Source: a virus. From it: a stretch of DNA of 42,702 nt. Positions 1 through 42,702 of this stretch are shown piece by piece (the stretch's first letter is position 1; each line of letters starts with the position of its first letter). Under the pieces are notes generated by a model. It had not been told where the DNA came from. It saw only the letters and a list, made by a program, of their open reading frames with translations, and made no database searches. The DNA lies in IMG/VR virus record IMGVR_UViG_3300045988_133767, positions 1 through 42,702 of that record; one strand, written 5' to 3'. The position numbers and the translations under genes are program-made.

Positions 1-467
1 AATTTGATGCTATGATGGATGCTATGGATGAAGCATTAGTGCCAGTAAGTGGAAGGGTTTTATATTGCGATACATATACAAAAACTTTAATTGACGATGC
101 TATAGCTATAGTTAGAAACAACGGAGATAAAAAACTAGCTAGAAATGTATCAAGAATAGAAGAAGTTGATATAGTTTCTGTACCAACAGCTCTTTTTAAA
201 ACAGAATATACATTTAATGATGGTAAAACATCTGGACAAACTGATGGAGGATTTGTAGCTAAATCAACTGCTAAAGATATAGCAATGATATTATTGCATC
301 CAAGTGCTATATTACCTATAGTTTCTTATTCATTCGCACAACTTCAACCACCAAGTGCATTATCACAAGGCAAATATGTATACTTTGAAGAATCATTCGA
401 AGATGTATTTATCTTAAATAAAAGAGTTGATGCGATACAAATATGTGTTAAAAAATCAGATGCTTAA
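1..467 (+). CDS. major capsid protein, C-terminal part (continues 42200..42702 across the circular junction)
   Basis: The frame starting at base 3 is open to the stop at 465-467. Bases 1-55 are identical to 42648-42702, so this ORF continues the ORF that starts at ATG 42200, giving about 304 aa in total. It lies directly after the scaffold gene. Confidence 0.8.
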   Translation, partial: FDAMMDAMDEALVPVSGRVLYCDTYTKTLIDDAIAIVRNNGDKKLARNVSRIEEVDIVSVPTALFKTEYTFNDGKTSGQTDGGFVAKSTAKDIAMILLHPSAILPIVSYSFAQLQPPSALSQGKYVYFEESFEDVFILNKRVDAIQICVKKSDA

Positions 468-2632: not shown

Positions 2633-2967
2633 AACTCAAAGAGCTAATTGAGAATCTATATAAAAAGTTAGTGGGTGGTATGAAAATGCCACCTTCTTCT
2701 TTTTGGCATCTAACTATACATGAAGCTAATTTAGCACTAGAAGGGCATAAAAAAGAACAACAAGAGCAATATAACTTAAGTCTATGTTGCTTACAAAATG
2801 CTTTAGGAATGGCATTTGGAGGGGATAAATTCAAGCCTATCAATCCTTTTGAGAGCGCTAAGAGTAAAAAAGAAGCTCATAAAGTAAGCAAGAAACAAAG
2901 AGAAGAAAACTTGACATATATAAATAATTTATTTGAAAAATTTGGAGGTGGTGAAAATAGCAACTAA
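2297..2967 (+). CDS. tail assembly chaperone frameshift fusion (gpGT-like; -1 shift at 2623-2629)
   Basis: The downstream ORF (track 2671..2967) is in the -1 frame and is open back to 2620, with no independent RBS or ATG near 2620. This is the canonical G/GT arrangement upstream of a tape measure gene. Confidence 0.7.
2623..2629 (+). promoter_or_regulatory. -1 programmed ribosomal frameshift slippery heptamer G_GGA_AAG
   Basis: The zero-frame codons are GAG GGA AAG TAG. The -1 frame is open from 2620 to 2967. The X_XXY_YYZ pattern is satisfied, and the heptamer is the same as the lambda G/GT site. Confidence 0.8.
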
Positions 2968-3655
2968 AGTTTTAAATGTAAAGATCAATGCTGATATAGC
3001 TTCCTTCAAAACAAAAATGCAAGATGCTAGAAAATCAATCCAGGATATGTCAGAAAGCATTAAAAAGGCGACTGGCAATAGTAAATTAAGTGATGCATTA
3101 GGAGCTTCTGACTTTGGCAAAAAGCTAGAAGAAGTTAAAACTAAAGCATCTAATTTAGGACAAGTATTTAAAGCATTACCTGGACCAGCAAAAGCACTTG
3201 TTGTTGTAACTGCAGTATTAACAGTTACTAAAAAGTTATATGATGCTGGAAAACAGAGGTTTTTTGATGGACTGAATAACATAAAAGATACAGTCTCCCC
3301 TGTGTTTCAAGGTATGCTCACCTCAATAAATGCAGTTAAAGATGCTTTTAGTGAGTTAACAGGATTTGATTTTAATCTTTCAAGTCTTATAACAACTGGA
3401 GCAAACTTTGAATCACAAATGAAAACAGTTGCTACAATAGCTGGAAGTGTAGGAACTGAATTTGACCAGTTAGTTGCAAAAGCTAGAGAATTAGGAGCTG
3501 CAACTACATTTAGCGCTAGTCAAGTGGGCCAAGCAATGCAATATATGGCCATGGCTGGTTGGTCAACTCAAGAAATGCTTGACGGAGTACAATCAACATT
3601 AAATTTAGCAAAAATAGGGGCTACAGATTTAGGAACAGCAAGTGACATTTTGACT
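2933..3655 (+). CDS. tail tape measure protein, exon 1
   Basis: The coiled-coil N-terminus is followed by the TMP core motif ...ATTFSASQVGQAMQYMAMAGWSTQEMLDGVQSTLNLAKIGATDLGTASDILT. Coding-like sequence stops at ACT 3653-3655. The exact start is uncertain (TTG 2933, or GTG 2948/2951 next to GGAGG 2944-2948). Confidence 0.8.
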
Positions 3656-3943
3656 AAAATATTGGTCGGTTTAGTAGAAATACTATTCAAAAAATATTCG
3701 GTGAATTGCTGGAAGGCTAAGTTAATATTTGTAATTTATGGTATTAATATGCTAATCAGCAACCAAGCCATGGAAAGCCGTAAAAGTACATGGAAGGTTC
3801 AGAGACTAGGAGAATGAATAGGCAAATAATAATTTCTCCCACGAGCGCCGAACACCTTACTATTAAGTTAAAGGTGATGATATAGTCCCATCCTCTTATG
3901 AAAGTAAGAGTTCTAGGATAAAGAGCCTAGATATAAGATAATG
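3656..3943 (+). mobile_element. group I intron 1 in the tape measure gene (ORF-less, 288 nt)
   Basis: The 5' exon ends in U. Exon TTGACT (3650-3655) can pair with GGTCGG (3664-3669) to form P1 with a U.G pair at the splice site. There is a GAAA-tetraloop hairpin TAGTA-GAAA-TACTA. The P7 candidate is GACTA (3804-3808) with TAGTC (3883-3887), set in a GATATAGTCC context. The intron ends in G at 3943, and exon 2 resumes in frame. Confidence 0.8.
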
Positions 3944-4141
3944 GATGATTTAACTGCACTTGGCATGCAAGCAAATCAAGCTGGCGACTTTGCAGATAAA
4001 TTAGCTGCAACTATTACTAGAAGTAATACCGATGTTGTTTTATTCGGTGAATCTATGAAACAAACAGGCGCTATCGCTGGAGCATTAGGTGCTTCTATGA
4101 CAGATTTATCAACTAGTATCGGTCTAATGGCAAATGCGGGT
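3944..4141 (+). CDS. tail tape measure protein, exon 2
   Basis: Encodes DDLTALGMQANQAGDFADKLAATITRSNTDVVLFGESMKQTGAIAGALGASMTDLSTSIGLMANAG, which continues the TMP core motif exactly. There is no RBS before the apparent ATG at 3941. Confidence 0.8.
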
Positions 4142-4402
4142 AGACATACATGCTCGGTTACTAAGAAATTAGTAGCATAAAATACAGGGTTAAAATTGGA
4201 AAGCTAAGTCGAAAGATATGCTAATCAATTACCACTTCTATTAGGGATAATAGAAAGGTTTAGAGACTAGATAAAGTAAACTAGAACAGTTGAAATATCC
4301 ACGAAATCCTGCACCTAAGTTTAGAAAATATGGTGAAGAGATAGTCCGATACTCTTAGGAAACTAGGAGAGATAAGGATAAAGAGCCTTATTGTAACAAT
4401 TG
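4142..4402 (+). mobile_element. group I intron 2 in the tape measure gene (ORF-less, 261 nt)
   Basis: The 5' exon ends in U (GGT). Exon CGGGT (4137-4141) pairs with GCTCG (4152-4156), giving a U.G at the splice site. The P7 candidate is GACTA (4265-4269) with TAGTC (4342-4346). There is a GAAA-loop hairpin CTCTTAG-GAAA-CTAGGAG. The shared 3' block GGATAAAGAGCCT is present, and the intron ends in G at 4402. Confidence 0.75.
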
Positions 4403-4447
4403 ATTAAAGGTTCAAAGGCAGGTATGTCTTTGAAGAATATGTTGGCT
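4403..4447 (+). CDS. tail tape measure protein, exon 3 (45-nt micro-exon)
   Basis: Encodes IKGSKAGMSLKNMLA. This is the conserved G-IKGS-AG-LK motif of TP901-type tape measure proteins, in frame with both flanking exons. Confidence 0.75.
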
Positions 4448-5828
4448 AGAATATTGGTCGGTTTAGTAGAAATACTATTCAAAAAAGATTCGGCAATATC
4501 GGTGAAGGCTAAGTTTATTAATAATTGTAAATATGTTATAATATTTTTAGGGATAGTTAAGGAAGTCGCGAGCCTTAATGACAAGAAAGTTATCCGAGCT
4601 TTCTTCCCTTGTTAAATAAATCGGAAAATAAAAATACTGTCGGAGGTGTTTTTTATTATGAAAAAAATATGTATTTGTTGTGGTTTAGAAAAGGATATAA
4701 CAGAATTTTCTTTTAGAAAAGATACTAATAAGTATAGAAATCAATGTAAAGATTGCAGAAAGCAACAGAAAGCTAAATACGATAAAGAATATAATACCAA
4801 AAACAAAGAACGTAGAAAACAATATAGAAAAGAAAATGAAGCTAAAATAAAAGAACATAATAAACAATATTATGAAAAACATAAAGAAGTTTTAAAGAAA
4901 AATACTTCTGAATATTACCACAACAACAAAGCAAAAGTTTTAGAAAAATGCAAAGAATATAGAGAAAATAATAAAGAAAAAATAAAAATATCACAAAAGA
5001 AATATCGTGAAAGCAATAAAGTGTATTTAAATGAAAAGAGTAAACAGTATTACGAAGAACATAAAGAAGTTTTAAATGAAAGAAGAAAAAATTATCGTAT
5101 AGAAAATAATTTAGAAGTACGTAAATTAGATTACGAATATAGATTAAAAAATAAACACAGATATAAATACACTTGTAAGAATTGTGGCAAAAGCTTCACG
5201 GATTTTAAATTAGGAAGAAAGTTTTGCTCAACTGAATGTTTTAACGAGTATAATCAAGGCAGTAATAATCCTAATTACAATGTGAATTTAACAGATGAAG
5301 AAAGAGCTGAAAATAGAGATACAAAAGAATATAAAGTATGGAGAAAAAAGATTTTTGAAAAATATAATTATACTTGCCAATGTTGTGGGCAACAAGGCGG
5401 AGATATAGTTGCTCATCATTTAGATTCTTTTGATAAGAACAAAGAAAGTAGGCTTGACATAGAAAACGGAATAGTTCTTTGCAAGAAACATCATAAAGAA
5501 TTTCATCATATCTACGGATATGGTAACAATACAAAAGAACAATATGAACAATTTATAAATGATAAGGTATCTAAATAAGATGCCTTTTTATTTTGCAATT
5601 ATTAATAGATACGTTAATACCGAGATAACTTTATAGATTACGAAAGGCTATAAAGTATCGTAGAGCGTAGAGGGTGAATAAATATAATCCCTCCAAGAGT
5701 GTCGAACATCTTAACAAGTAAAGTTGAAGATGAAAATGTACGCCAAACTGAGTTGGAATTGACCAACTGATGAAAATGAAGGAAACTTCCAGAGGTGAAG
5801 ATAAAAAGCTTCACGATAATAACTATTG
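4448..5828 (+). mobile_element. group I intron 3 in the tape measure gene, carrying an HNH homing endonuclease ORF (1381 nt)
   Basis: The 5' exon ends in U (GCT). Exon TTGGCT (4442-4447) pairs with GGTCGG (4456-4461). The first 39 nt of the intron are near-identical to the start of intron 1. The P7 candidate is GCGTA (5665-5669) with TACGC (5739-5743). The intron ends in G at 5828. An ORF with its own RBS occupies 4658-5578. Confidence 0.8.
4658..5578 (+). CDS. intron-encoded HNH homing endonuclease
   Basis: RBS GGAGGTG is followed 9 nt later by ATG 4658. The N-terminus is Cys-containing, followed by Lys-rich repeats (KxYYExHKEVL). There is a zinc-ribbon motif CKNCGK...FCSTEC. The C-terminal HNH motif is CQCCG...VAHHLDSF...NGIVLCKKHHKEFHH. 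Confidence 0.85.
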   Translation: MKKICICCGLEKDITEFSFRKDTNKYRNQCKDCRKQQKAKYDKEYNTKNKERRKQYRKENEAKIKEHNKQYYEKHKEVLKKNTSEYYHNNKAKVLEKCKEYRENNKEKIKISQKKYRESNKVYLNEKSKQYYEEHKEVLNERRKNYRIENNLEVRKLDYEYRLKNKHRYKYTCKNCGKSFTDFKLGRKFCSTECFNEYNQGSNNPNYNVNLTDEERAENRDTKEYKVWRKKIFEKYNYTCQCCGQQGGDIVAHHLDSFDKNKESRLDIENGIVLCKKHHKEFHHIYGYGNNTKEQYEQFINDKVSK

Positions 5829-8483
5829 AATATGGCAAATCCAACAGACCAACAAGACAGAGCTTTACAAGAATTAGGAATGACTGCTGACAAAACAGGA
5901 AGTTATCTAAAAACAACAGCTGACGGATGTACAGATTTAGAAGCTACAGTAAAAGCATTAAGAGAAGGCACAGAAAATATGACAAGAAGTCAAAAAGCAG
6001 CTTTGATAGCTACTGTTGCTGGTAAAAATGCTTTACCAGGAGTTATGTCACTTGTTAATGCATCAGCAGAAGAATACAACAAGCTATCAGAAGCGATAGA
6101 CAATTCAACTTCTACAGTATCAATGTTTAATGAAAATATGAACATCTTAGGTTTAAAAGGCGAAGATGCTACAAAGAGAATAGAAGTCATGAAAGATGTA
6201 TTTTCTAATACTGAAACATCAGCAACAGCATTAGGATTGTCTAGTAAAGACTTAGGATATGCAATATCTTTACTTGGTGATGATTGTAAAGTTAGTTCTC
6301 AATCTGTAGAAGATTTACTCGATGTAGTAGAATCTATGGATAATGCTAGTGGTAAAGTTGATAAATTTTGGAGAAGTGTAGGAAATGCTAAAAACATAGA
6401 AATAGACGGAAAAGCAATAAATCAACTTATAGATTATAACGGAACTTTAAGTACTATAGATAATTCTATAGTTGGACTTAGTGATCATACAGTAGAATAT
6501 GCTAAAGCTCATAATGAAAACTATAAAAACACAAAAGAATATGTTAAATCACTTGTAAAAGAAGGAATGACAATAGACGATGCTAACAGTAAGCTTTCTA
6601 AATATGGAATAGAAGCTGAAAAAATATCATTATCTACATTATCAATGTCTCAAAAGACAGATTACCTAAGACAAGCATTTAAGGGCATGTCAGACGAACA
6701 AATAAAAGCTAAATTGCAAACTATAGGACTTGGAGATAGCTTTGATGAAGTTAACGAAATAGTTGATATGTCAGATGAAAAATATGCAACTTACAAGAAG
6801 AATCTTAAAGAAATTGAAGGATTATCAACTAGATTAGCTGACAGCATTGATGAAACAACAAAATCAACATTTTTAGCATTATCAAGTGCGATAGAAGATA
6901 GTTTAATAGGTGCATTTGAAAAAATGAAACCAGCGCTTATAAACGGCTCTCAAGCACTTACAGACTTTTTCTCAACTTGGAGAAACGGGGATAAAAACAC
7001 TTATACTTTTGATGGATTTGAAAAGGGATTAGCTGACTTAGAAACAAAAGTATCTAATGCAGCTAAAAATATACCTAATTTAATATCAAATGCAATAAGT
7101 GGTGCTAATAGATTTATAAGTGGTGGTTCTTTAGACAGTTTATTAAGCATGGGTAGTAGTATAGTTAAAAACATAGCTCAAGGCATAATAAACAACAAAG
7201 AAGGTTTATCAGCTGCAATAAGTAGTTTGATATCAAAAGTTTGTAGCTGGATTCAAGAAAATGGTCCTATGATCCAAGAAGCTGGCAAAGTTATCTTAGA
7301 AGCTATAGGAAACGGAATAAGAAATAATAGAGATCAAATAAATTCAGCATGCGGTATTATCTATGATGCAATGAACGATTGGTCGGCTGCAAATGCAGAA
7401 AATATGGGTATGCTTGGTGGTTCAGTAGCAGATAAATTTATATGGGGATTCTTAAAAGGCTTTACAATGGATAAATTTGCTGGTATAAAAGGATTTTTTG
7501 CTGGATTATTTAACAGCGACGGACAAGATGCTTATCAACAATGGGGTATTTCTAGTGGGCAAAATTACACCAATGGTATAAACTCAGGACTTGAACAAAG
7601 TAAATCTACAACAAATGCTACTGCAACAGAAATAGGCGATGGCATTTCCCAAAATATAATGAATAAGCTAGAAACTATGAATGCAAGTCAACTAAAAGAG
7701 TTAGAAAAAGAATTAAAATCCTTACAAACAACAACTCAAAATGTAGCTAATGGTATAGGTTCAAGCTTTGGAAAAATTAGAAATACAGTTAGAGAGAATT
7801 TAGTGGGTAGTGTTAACATAGGTAGAAATCAATTTGTCAACCTAGCTAATATTATAAGAAATCAATCTCAAAATGCTAGAAATAGCGCAACAAGAAGCTT
7901 TATATCACTTAGAAAAGTTATAAATACACAAATAACACAAGCTAGAACTGCTGTAACAAGTAAGATGATATCTATTGCTAATGTTGTAAGAACACAGTCA
8001 CAAAATGCACGTAACAATGCTACAAGAAGCTTTATATCACTTAGAAAAGTTATACAAACTCAAATGTCACAAGCTTATAGTTCTGTAAATAGTTATATGT
8101 CTAAAATAGCATCTGCTACAAATAGAACACTTAACACTAAAGTTAATGTTACTAGAACTGTTAATACTGTAAATCAGAGTGCTAGAACAGCTAATTTAAA
8201 AGCTGTAAACACAATGGCATATTCAAACTTAGCATATAGTGCTATAAGAGCTACAAATAATGCTGCTACTGCTAGTTTAGCTAGTACATCAACTTCAAGC
8301 TTTTCTAGTTCAACAGGTGTATCTAGTTCTTCTAATAGCACAGCAAAAGCTACTACAAGAGATATGAGGATAGTAATGCCAGTATATCTTGATAGCAAGG
8401 TCATAGGTGAATCTACTGCAGATATAGTAGATGATAAAATAAAAGTAAAAGCAAGAAGAGAAAACAGGAAGAGAGGTAGATAA
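5829..8483 (+). CDS. tail tape measure protein, exon 4
   Basis: Starts NMANPTDQQDRALQELGM, which completes the ...KNMLA|NMANPT motif. It then runs as a long helical protein with C-terminal tandem repeats. The apparent start at TTG 5826 has no RBS. Confidence 0.85.
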   Translation, partial: NMANPTDQQDRALQELGMTADKTGSYLKTTADGCTDLEATVKALREGTENMTRSQKAALIATVAGKNALPGVMSLVNASAEEYNKLSEAIDNSTSTVSMFNENMNILGLKGEDATKRIEVMKDVFSNTETSATALGLSSKDLGYAISLLGDDCKVSSQSVEDLLDVVESMDNASGKVDKFWRSVGNAKNIEIDGKAINQLIDYNGTLSTIDNSIVGLSDHTVEYAKAHNENYKNTKEYVKSLVKEGMTIDDANSKLSKYGIEAEKISLSTLSMSQKTDYLRQAFKGMSDEQIKAKLQTIGLGDSFDEVNEIVDMSDEKYATYKKNLKEIEGLSTRLADSIDETTKSTFLALSSAIEDSLIGAFEKMKPALINGSQALTDFFSTWRNGDKNTYTFDGFEKGLADLETKVSNAAKNIPNLISNAISGANRFISGGSLDSLLSMGSSIVKNIAQGIINNKEGLSAAISSLISKVCSWIQENGPMIQEAGKVILEAIGNGIRNNRDQINSACGIIYDAMNDWSAANAENMGMLGGSVADKFIWGFLKGFTMDKFAGIKGFFAGLFNSDGQDAYQQWGISSGQNYTNGINSGLEQSKSTTNATATEIGDGISQNIMNKLETMNASQLKELEKELKSLQTTTQNVANGIGSSFGKIRNTVRENLVGSVNIGRNQFVNLANIIRNQSQNARNSATRSFISLRKVINTQITQARTAVTSKMISIANVVRTQSQNARNNATRSFISLRKVIQTQMSQAYSSVNSYMSKIASATNRTLNTKVNVTRTVNTVNQSARTANLKAVNTMAYSNLAYSAIRATNNAATASLASTSTSSFSSSTGVSSSSNSTAKATTRDMRIVMPVYLDSKVIGESTADIVDDKIKVKARRENRKRGR

Positions 8484-42199: not shown

Positions 42200-42702
42200 A
42201 TGACAGTAAATTACGCAGAAAGTTATTCAAGAGAATTAGCAAATGCTTATCCATATGTCTTATATTCAGGAGCATTATGGAGTAACGAAAATACAAAAAA
42301 ATATAAAGTAGTAGATGCAAAGACTATAAAAATACCACTTTTATCTACTGGAGGCAGAGTTGACGGAGATAGAACTAAAATTGGAGACTTCTCTCAAAAC
42401 TTCTCAAATGAATGGGAGACTAAAACACTTACTAACCATAGAATTTGGCAAACACTAGTGCATCCACAAGATGTAAATCAAACTAATATGGTAGCATCTA
42501 TAAGTAACATTACAAAAGTAATGAATGAAACTAAAAAGTTTCCTGAGCTAGATGCAATGATGTTCTCTACTATATATAGTTTAAGAAATGCACAAAAAGC
42601 AATAACTGCTGAAACTGCTGATTTAACAGCAAATACAGTATTGACTAAATTTGATGCTATGATGGATGCTATGGATGAAGCATTAGTGCCAGTAAGTGGA
42701 AG
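42200..42702 (+). CDS. major capsid protein, N-terminal part (runs off the window and continues at 1..467)
   Basis: ATG 42200 lies after AAAGGATGATG. The frame is open to the window end. It is not in the ORF track because no stop is reached. Confidence 0.8.
   Translation, partial: MTVNYAESYSRELANAYPYVLYSGALWSNENTKKYKVVDAKTIKIPLLSTGGRVDGDRTKIGDFSQNFSNEWETKTLTNHRIWQTLVHPQDVNQTNMVASISNITKVMNETKKFPELDAMMFSTIYSLRNAQKAITAETADLTANTVLTKFDAMMDAMDEALVPVSG
42648..42702. repeat. 55-bp exact repeat of bases 1-55 (circular-assembly overlap)
   Basis: The two ends match exactly by direct comparison. The repeat lies inside the capsid ORF. Confidence 0.95.

Follow-up and report, generated by a model that had tools for sequence, protein, structure and literature searches.

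An endonuclease-less group I intron in the tape-measure gene of a metagenomic phage: structure, empty alleles and probable route of arrival

Introduction

How does an intron that encodes no mobility enzyme come to interrupt the tape-measure gene (TMP) of a phage, and by what route did it arrive there? We asked this of positions 3656-3943 of the IMG/VR virus record IMGVR_UViG_3300045988_133767, whose entire 42,702-nt stretch (30.6% G+C) is referred to here as the window. A first-pass annotation, made from the letters alone, had described these 288 nt as a compact, ORF-less group I intron that would depend either on a homing enzyme supplied in trans, possibly by the third intron of the same gene, or on reverse splicing. 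The analysis below leads us to conclude, with high confidence, that this element is a group I intron, self-splicing by prediction and belonging to subgroup IA (IA2-like), which was delivered by homing with co-conversion of flanking exon sequence and whose HNH endonuclease gene has since been deleted.

A tape-measure gene with three introns

The gene interrupted by the element is the plus-strand TMP, a siphophage tape-measure gene carrying the domain PF10145. Its first exon (2951..3655) begins with a GTG at 2951, a start shared by identical database proteins (P0004), and its translation ends in ...GTASDILT. Downstream on the same strand are intron 1 (3656-3943, 288 nt), exon 2 (3944..4141; 198 nt, 66 codons, DDLTALGM...LMANAG, with the translation downstream of the site starting DDLTALGMQANQ), intron 2 (4142-4402, 261 nt), exon 3 (4403-4447, merely 45 nt), intron 3 (4448-5828; 1381 nt, encoding an intact HNH protein), and the exon 4 segment of the spliced CDS (5829-8483). 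All three introns are in phase 0, and intron 1 separates the codons of ...SDILT from those of DDLTALGM with the frame kept, as the first-pass annotation had read this junction. The spliced CDS (2951-3655 + 3944-4141 + 4403-4447 + 5829-8483) comprises 1200 codons with zero internal stops. A 264-residue spliced segment spanning all three junctions matches PF10145 at 3e-43, and aligns unbroken to TMPs from 811 phage records (best identity 44%), most of which belong to phages of Clostridia and Staphylococcus.

Intron 2 is recognized by the Rfam group I model RF00028 (53.9 bits, match 4116-4369) and by a covariance model that we built from relatives of intron 1 (referred to as R1; 93.1 bits). Intron 3 was not found by the Rfam models, even at E <= 1, and its limits were set by exon logic together with a weak R1 match on its 3' half. 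The first 46 nt of introns 1 and 3 are 96% identical and have the guide GGUCGG in common, and the 5' exon ends are similar as well (TTGACT for intron 1 and TTGGCT for intron 3); beyond TTGRCT the DNA around the two sites is dissimilar. More broadly, the PF10145 domain contains at least five distinct intron insertion sites within about 100 codons, and several nearby TMP sites, all ending in GRCU, hold related introns whose guides are identical or alike.

When the window is aligned to the closely related contig L124, its end continues into its start, as would be expected if it were a whole phage genome in circularly permuted form, which is probably the case. Megablast found no close relatives of it among 50,697 annotated phage records. 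In the GTDB representative genomes, an exact 21-nt intron pattern had no match, and a TMP-based scan returned relatives at 41-53% only.

Identity and boundaries of intron 1

RF00028 matches 3646-3910 over its full length (model positions 1-253/253) with 105.9 bits (E 1.2e-26), against a gathering score of 50, which answers the covariance-model fold that the first-pass annotation had proposed as a check. R1 scores the intron at 152.3 bits (E 2e-44), and a search with it recovered 137 copies in 100 loci; since R1 models the P3-P7 core only, the assignments of P1, P2, P9, and P9.1 rest on Rfam, the minimum free energy (MFE) fold, and visual comparison. None of the conserved nucleotides or helices of the core has been lost, and the score matches those of the best family members. 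The MFE fold (-69.1 kcal/mol, z = -2.53, with 0/100 shuffles as stable) recovers P1, P2, P3, P4, P5/P5a, P6a, P7.1, P8, P9, and P9.1, and misses the P7 pseudoknot. This conservation suggests that the intron is catalytically competent to splice itself.

Between 3656 and 3943 there is no ORF besides 53 codons that read through from exon 1, so that the intron encodes no homing endonuclease of its own. Its boundaries are exact, as near-identical phages carry empty alleles lacking precisely these positions. The first-pass identification as a compact ORF-less group I intron is thus borne out by RF00028, R1, covariation, the exact empty alleles, and the restored TMP domain. We considered and rejected a group II intron, an intein, a programmed frameshift, and an IStron, since the element is non-coding, matches RF00028 from end to end, and is bounded by a U before its first nucleotide and a G at its last. 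An IStron would have, at the ribozyme's 3' end, a TnpB module or a transposase of the IS200/IS605 type; here P1 to P9.1 fill all 288 nt and an ORF is absent.

Secondary structure and covariation

The pairings proposed for P1, P2, P7, and P9 and the terminal G in the first-pass annotation are all present in the structure described here, in which all positions refer to the plus strand. P1 (3650-57/3662-69, UUGACUAA/UUGGUCGG), supported by RF00028 and the helix map, pairs the last six exon nucleotides UUGACU (TTGACT, 3650-3655) with the guide GGUCGG (GGTCGG, 3664-3669), is lengthened by AA at 3656-57 and TT at 3662-63, and has the wobble pair U3655-G3664 where the 5' splice site lies. Across 8 alleles, position -1 is U wherever the intron is present and A or C wherever it is absent. 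P2 is the hairpin UAGUA-GAAA-UACUA (3672-76/3681-85; thus 3672-3685 overall), found both by RF00028 and in the MFE fold.

The core begins with P3 (3697-3703/3846-3852, UUCGGUG/CGCCGAA, 7 bp), the 3' strand of which follows a conserved CACGAG, and continues with P4 (3707-12/3756-61, UGCUGG/UCAGCA), also supported by covariation. P5 (3716-21/3748-52, GCUAAG/UAUGC) forms a variant of the 11-nt GAAA-tetraloop receptor and is extended by the covarying P5a (3722-29/3740-47, UUAAUAUU/GGUAUUAA), which is closed by the loop L5a (3730-3739). P6 (3763-64/3796-97, CC/GG) and P6a (3768-72/3789-93, CCAUG/CAUGG) show compensatory changes in 7/7 pairs. P7, the presumed guanosine-binding helix, consists of G3802, a bulged A3803, and 3804-08 paired with 3883-88 (G[A]GACUA/UAGUCC); the GACTA (3804-3808) and TAGTC (3883-3887) strands had been proposed before, and one further pair, G3802-C3888, is added here. 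Five of its pairs are invariant in the 19-sequence set, in which the outer pair alternates between G-C (13 sequences) and A-U (6). Between P7 and the 3' strand of P3 lies P7.1 (3809-14/3834-39, GGAGAA/UUCUCC, with a 19-nt loop), which has compensatory changes in 5/6 pairs (19 sequences) and, in relatives, a nested distal helix. P8 (3853-58/3871-76, CACCUU/AAGGUG) shows compensatory changes in 6/6 pairs and leads into J8/7 and the 3' strand of P7 (3877..3888; AUGAUA, UAGUCC), which fit the GAUAUAGUC core that is invariant in both RF00028 and R1.

In the 3' domain, P9 (3893-99/3904-10, CUCUUAU-GAAA-GUAAGAG), which RF00028 and the MFE fold both place at 3893-3910, keeps its pairing through the substitutions seen in the L040, L127, and L129 copies. 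P9.1 (3913-17/3926-30, CUAGG-AUAAAGAG-CCUAG) has a conserved loop and a covarying stem; the same loop recurs on different stems in introns 2 and 3. A DNA pattern for this domain (ATAGTC, N20-40, GGATAAAGAGCC) has matches in at least 120 IMG/VR contigs. The omega G at 3943 marks the 3' splice site, where the empty alleles also place the boundary, and site-1 copies all end in ...AAUG. P10 of intron 1 is weak, with 3-4 bp that include two G-U pairs.

Covariation was assessed for P3, P4, P5, P6/P6a, P7.1, P8, and one P7 pair. In a MAFFT alignment of 19 core sequences, 92.7% of the cells are standard-paired, vs. 26-43% when the partners are slid by 1-3 columns, and both sides have changed in 29 pairs. 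Among 134 relatives the corresponding values are 89.1 and 35-41%, with double changes in 37/38 pairs; this alignment was fitted to R1 and so favors the structure, and the independent 19-sequence alignment agrees with it. P3 illustrates the two sets, with double-sided changes in 7/7 pairs among the 134 sequences and in 4/7 among the 19. Covariation statistics based on shuffling are inflated by the relatedness of the sequences; sliding the partners gives a fairer control, and by that control the result is still clear-cut. A consistent P3-P8 core is therefore present, so that the circumstance named by the first-pass annotation as fatal to its reading, i.e., the lack of any such core, does not apply.

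The receptor motif in P5 and a GAAA loop in L9 tend to occur together (12/15 vs. 43/119 sequences; Fisher p = 0.0016, a statistic that ignores phylogeny). The GAAA loop of P9 thus probably docks into the 11-nt-type receptor of P5, as far as this co-occurrence indicates.

Subgroup assignment

An element inserted between P7 and the 3' strand of P3 is a hallmark of subgroup IA. In intron 1 this insert (3809-3839) is one covarying 6-bp stem with a 19-nt loop, and not the two side-by-side hairpins of classical IA2. The structure map further shows no P5abc-type extension, no P2.1, and a compact P9 accompanied by P9.1. R1 matches the three introns of the Twort orf142 gene over the full model, with 78.6, 61.7, and 44.7 bits for I2, I3, and I1 respectively, and subgroup IA2 has been reported to be heterogeneous (PMC11878797). 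We therefore assign intron 1 to subgroup IA, and probably to IA2. The IA2 membership that the first-pass annotation had guessed is favored by the extra P7.1 and by the Twort orf142 matches, but the P7.1/P7.2 architecture is not the textbook one.

Empty alleles and the co-converted flank

A database search with the spliced protein returned two near-identical kinds of ORF, one stopped by the intron and one reading through ...SDILTDDLTALGM... Those ending just inside intron 1 (P0004, P0005, and others) account for about 262 member sequences and those reading through (P0001, P0002, and P0003) for 24, so that intron-bearing alleles dominate the database clusters. The contigs with P0001 and P0002 (L124, L125, L126, and L139) are about 97% identical to the window, an identity that in L124 extends over about 10 kb of shared sequence, and lack exactly 3656-3943. 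They read ...SDILT directly into DDLTALG... without a break, and the empty site 1 has the sequence TCAGATATTTTAACA joined to GATGATTTAACT (also written …GCCTCAGATATTTTAACA joined to GATGATTTAACTGCA…).

The empty and occupied alleles differ upstream of the site. The 5' flank of the occupied window allele (3640..3655, plus strand) reads GCA AGT GAC ATT TTG ACT, with its last 6 nt forming the exon strand of P1, and the four divergent phages in which the site is occupied (the window, L040, L127, and L129) share AGT GAY ATY KTG ACT. The flank of the empty alleles reads GCC TCA GAT ATT TTA ACA in L124, L125, L126, and L139, and GCT TCA GAT ATT TTG ACC in L137 and L138 (81% protein identity). Between empty and occupied alleles there are seven differences in the 16-nt 5' flank, all of them synonymous, and 0 in the 60-nt 3' flank. 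The switch of the Ser codon from TCA to AGT in the intron-linked flank lies outside P1, and therefore the flank appears to hitch-hike with the intron rather than to be selected for pairing.

Intron 1 matches its L040 and L127 copies at 95% identity and its L129 copy at 90%, in phage genomes that are 66-72% identical. It is thus far better conserved than the genomes that carry it, and has evidently been transferred horizontally. Between the divergent phages, exon identity is 80-88% up to 120 nt from the site, a value that is raised modestly only, and we therefore do not claim long co-conversion tracts between them. From these comparisons we infer the direction and mechanism of the transfer. Co-conversion of flanks distinguishes DNA-level homing from reverse splicing, which leaves the exons untouched (PMC2504315), and the arrival of intron 1 looks like the former because a 16-nt synonymous block travels with the intron. 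The presence/absence polymorphism itself could reflect either a gain in the lineage of the window or a loss in L124 through recombination with an intron-less allele.

A lost endonuclease gene

The site-1 intron of L127 is 1414 nt long, and the 288 nt of the window align with it at 95.1% identity, with one 1,124-nt block absent. This block maps to L5a (3730-3739); in L127, where it lies in the loop closing a long P5a stem, it codes for an HNH endonuclease of 321 aa. The window retains the distal 5' arm of the L127 P5a stem (UGUAAUUUAUGG), of which the partner is gone, and L040 retains the distal 3' arm; in the L129 copy the P5 hairpin is minimal. Window intron 1 is thus, to judge from the alignment, a deletion derivative, with L5a as the apparent scar of the HNH cassette. 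Because the window keeps one arm of the P5a stem and L040 the other, the HNH gene was most likely deleted at least twice, independently.

The HNH protein of intron 3 resembles that of L127 in the C-terminal nuclease domain of about 135 aa only (43% identity over 156 aligned positions), and the N-terminal ~170 aa of the two, likely the DNA-recognition part, are unrelated. A global alignment of intron 3 and the L127 intron fragmented into short blocks, for which reason the 83% figure derived from it was discarded and BLAST segments were used instead. No other homolog of the L127 enzyme was found in the window. The HNH enzyme of intron 3 looks specific for a site other than site 1, and the role of trans helper that the first-pass annotation had suggested for it finds no support in a similarity confined to the nuclease domain.

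Proposed mechanism

We propose that P1 arises by pairing of UUGACU, at the end of exon 1, with GGUCGG, the guide, that the U-G wobble lies at the cleavage site, and that the P3-P8 core folds with a P3/P7 pseudoknot and P7.1, probably braced by docking of the GAAA loop of P9 into the P5 receptor. Free guanosine bound in P7 would attack after U3655. G3943 would then replace the free guanosine in P7, and the 3'-OH of exon 1 would attack after G3943, joining ...SDILT to DDLTALG.... As for its arrival, endonuclease-driven homing at the DNA level would have copied about 16 nt of donor exon as well. The intron's own HNH gene, formerly in L5a, would have been deleted later, so that this copy would persist only through splicing, and renewed movement would be expected only if a co-infecting relative supplied a matching endonuclease.

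Alternative explanations

One alternative to homing by a formerly resident enzyme is that intron 1 is mobilized in trans by the HNH endonuclease of intron 3 in the same gene. The intron 3 protein is intact, the two introns have the guide, the nearly identical first 46 nt, and the TTGACT/TTGGCT exon ends in common, and there is a precedent in T4, where an intron with a defunct I-TevIII is documented to home in trans through a separate HNH enzyme, mobE (PMC2790892). However, the likeness of the intron 3 and L127 enzymes ends at the nuclease domain, the surroundings of sites 1 and 3 diverge outside TTGRCT, the window offers no second relative of the L127 enzyme, and L124 possesses intron 3 with its ORF and yet has site 1 empty, so that the presence of the enzyme did not fill the site; we regard this route as unlikely. 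The guide common to both introns permits a further reading, which we rate as unlikely, namely that the intron 3 ribozyme skips exons 2 and 3 and that the shared P1-P2 module reflects guide-directed transposition. Because the guide is the same, the exon ends UUGACU and UUGGCU are nearly alike, and phase 0 is common to all introns, the ribozyme of intron 3 could conceivably accept exon 1 as its 5' exon and thereby yield an in-frame TMP 81 residues shorter, and the P1-P2 module could record the transposition of one lineage between two TMP sites. Such exon skipping, if real, would mean that a ribozyme generates a variant of the protein by which tail length is set, but the shortened TMP is unlikely to be functional.

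Alternatively, an ORF-less intron could have arrived by reverse splicing into TMP RNA through its 6-nt guide, followed by reverse transcription and recombination. This route has been proposed for ORF-less introns (PMC2504315), and it would suit an intron that has no ORF and a short guide, and whose relatives with the same or similar guides occupy several neighboring TMP sites ending in GRCU. It would nevertheless leave the exons unaltered, but seven synonymous changes reaching beyond P1 accompany the intron in four phages; the empty alleles UUAACA and UUGACC end in A or C, with which a U-G wobble with the guide is impossible; and an HNH-bearing version of intron 1 occupies the same site in L127. 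Reverse splicing, which the first-pass annotation had left as an option, is therefore very improbable, chiefly on account of the 16-nt synonymous block. We consider it scarcely credible that intron 1 is a dead, non-splicing relic in a TMP pseudogene of a defective prophage. A gene with three introns within 2.2 kb and an exon of 45 nt might seem heavily burdened, but the intact core with a score as high as that of any family member, the open spliced frame of 1200 codons, and the maintenance of the intron in several phages (90-95% identity, with substitutions that preserve pairing) all speak against decay, as does the continuity of end and start that the window shows, in the manner of a complete phage genome, on alignment with L124. 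Twort orf142, moreover, is a working phage structural gene with three introns. Homing with co-conversion, followed by deletion of the endonuclease gene, thus remains our preferred account of intron 1.

Comparison with known systems

An endonuclease-less, phage-type group I intron in a TMP is a kind of element that is already known, and what is known of group I introns is unchanged by this one. The Twort orf142 introns I1-I3 were reportedly described by Landthaler and Shub in 1999, and orf142 serves as the phage IA2 reference ribozyme. In both the window and orf142, a single gene for a tail structural protein holds three compact group I introns close to one another with short exons in between, and the P3-P8 core and the GAUAUAGUC strand of P7 are the same. 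Unlike orf142, which encodes a tail tube protein, the gene of the window is a TMP, the P7.1/P7.2 region aligns poorly, and splicing is predicted here, while for orf142 both splicing and exon skipping have been shown experimentally (PMC3073962, PMC11878797).

Within TMP genes, Tourasse and Kolsto (2008; PMC2504315) described group I introns of subclass IA1/IA2 at three sites in prophages of the Bacillus cereus group. Many of these introns (TMP-IVS1, TMP-IVS2, and TMP-IVS3) have no complete endonuclease gene, they are common to unrelated phages, a gene can hold up to three of them, and relatives have become fitted to their different sites chiefly through changes in P1 and the guide (PMC2504315). 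Those of the window are likewise group I introns in a TMP, three per gene, with ORF-less ones among them; the likeness is one of description. In contrast to the Bacillus prophages, the window is of low G+C content with its nearest TMPs in Clostridia phages (44%), and its locus offers an HNH-bearing parent together with exact empty alleles.

The loss of a resident endonuclease has a counterpart in the T4 nrdB intron, which bears a defunct I-TevIII and homes in trans through mobE (PMC2790892). There too the intron's own endonuclease is lost or defective, and the nrdB intron still splices and can be copied when another nuclease cuts nearby. Unlike in nrdB, no free-standing nuclease gene adjoins intron 1, and the sole nearby HNH gene lies within intron 3. 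Among closely related metagenomic phages, the site-1 alleles capture the homing cycle with unusual completeness, as they include an endonuclease-bearing intron, two independently deleted copies, an exact empty site, and a co-converted flank.

The closest annotated relatives of the intron are found in the Clostridium perfringens phages phiCP13O, phiCP34O, CPQ4, and vB_CpeS-17DYC and in the Lactobacillus phage JCL1032 (71-78% over 90-215 nt), which share with it the TMP domain, the 5' P1-P2 layout, and the P9.1 loop. The phiCP13O intron differs in occupying another site (between IKGA and EGGTALRN) and in containing a 267-aa nuclease ORF, and the gene that it interrupts appears in the annotation as two TMPs without an intron. 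Split "tape measure" genes of this kind persist in public records of related Clostridium phages, whereas the TMP of the window phage and its relatives is better annotated as one spliced CDS, of 1200 codons, than as four fragments and a stray HNH gene. The TMP of JCL1032, which contains an RF00028 match, is already annotated as a joined CDS.

Intron insertion sites in the tape-measure gene and intron-core clusters on viral contigs

A comparison of insertion sites drawn from window 3650-5830, L001 (phiCP13O) 1620-2700 and L040 (a divergent phage that also carries an intron at site 1) 6180-6460 revealed that, across phages, at least five distinct intron insertion sites lie inside a stretch of roughly 100 codons in the PF10145 domain of the tape-measure protein. 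With a slash marking the point of insertion, these sites are SDILT/DD, LFG/ES (LMG/ET in L040), ANAG/IKG, IKGA/EGG (phiCP13O, L041), and NMLA/NM. At every one of these sites the 5' exon has U as its last base, and at several its terminal bases are GRCU.

Viral contigs from the IMG/VR loci L090, L077, L063, L008, and L018 contain 3-5 group I intron cores of the R1 type (i.e., matching the P3-P7 covariance model built from relatives of intron 1) within 2-6 kb; there are, for example, five R1 matches each on the L063 and L077 contigs and four on L090.

Introns 2 and 3

Like intron 1, intron 2 (window 4142-4402) is a group I intron that lacks an ORF, and it belongs to the same family; it scores 53.9 bits with the Rfam group I intron model RF00028 and 93.1 bits with R1. 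It has a canonical 11-nt receptor, CCUAAG...UAUGG, in P8, and its P5 additionally contains GCUAAG...UAUGC. Since intron 2 is absent from L040, L127 and L129 (two further phages with a site-1 intron), and the tape-measure allele P0006, it is polymorphic as well. In Pseudoalteromonas phage pYD6-A, a position without annotation matches a 38-nt stretch of intron 2 (window 4334-4371, from the 3' strand of P7 to P9) at 97% identity, which suggests that this distant Gram-negative phage contains a related intron.

Intron 3 (window 4448-5828), a group I intron of 1381 nt, encodes an HNH endonuclease in its P5 loop (ORF at window about 4659-5578); an Rfam search of this intron gave no detection. Judged from sequence comparisons, intron 3 looks mosaic in make-up: the opening 46 nt share 96% identity with intron 1, and some 230 nt leading up to the start of the ORF share 81% with the site-1 intron of L127. 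The final 212 nt match, at 83% identity, an intervening sequence with an ORF that interrupts the gene for the large terminase in Clostridium phage vB_CpeS-1181. The P7 of intron 3 (GCGUA/UACGC) is unlike that of introns 1 and 2.

The P9.1 loop (window 3918-3925, 4377-4384, and 5801-5808 in introns 1, 2, and 3 respectively) is conserved as AUAAAGAG, or AUAAAAAG in intron 3, while the stems beneath it differ among the three introns and covary. This loop may make a tertiary contact. The longer motif GGATAAAGAGCC is present in at least 120 viral contigs.

Exon structure, annotation and genome form

Exon 3 (window 4403-4447), flanked by two group I introns, is only 45 nt long (IKGSKAGMSLKNMLA). As the lengths of exons 2 and 3 are both divisible by three and every intron is in phase 0, any exon skipping would keep the reading frame.

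In public records, intron-split tape-measure and terminase genes are entered as two separate CDSs (L001 955-4121, phiCP13O; L002, vB_CpeS-17DYC; L141 839-3793, vB_CpeS-1181), accompanied by a hypothetical protein or no feature, and the group I introns between them lack annotation.

Both ends of the window (1-60 and 42640-42702, the latter reaching the last nucleotide, 42702) align to overlapping positions (3051-3105) of L124, a phage 97% identical to the window over up to about 10 kb; from this overlap, the window has the look of a complete phage genome that is circularly permuted and whose termini overlap slightly.
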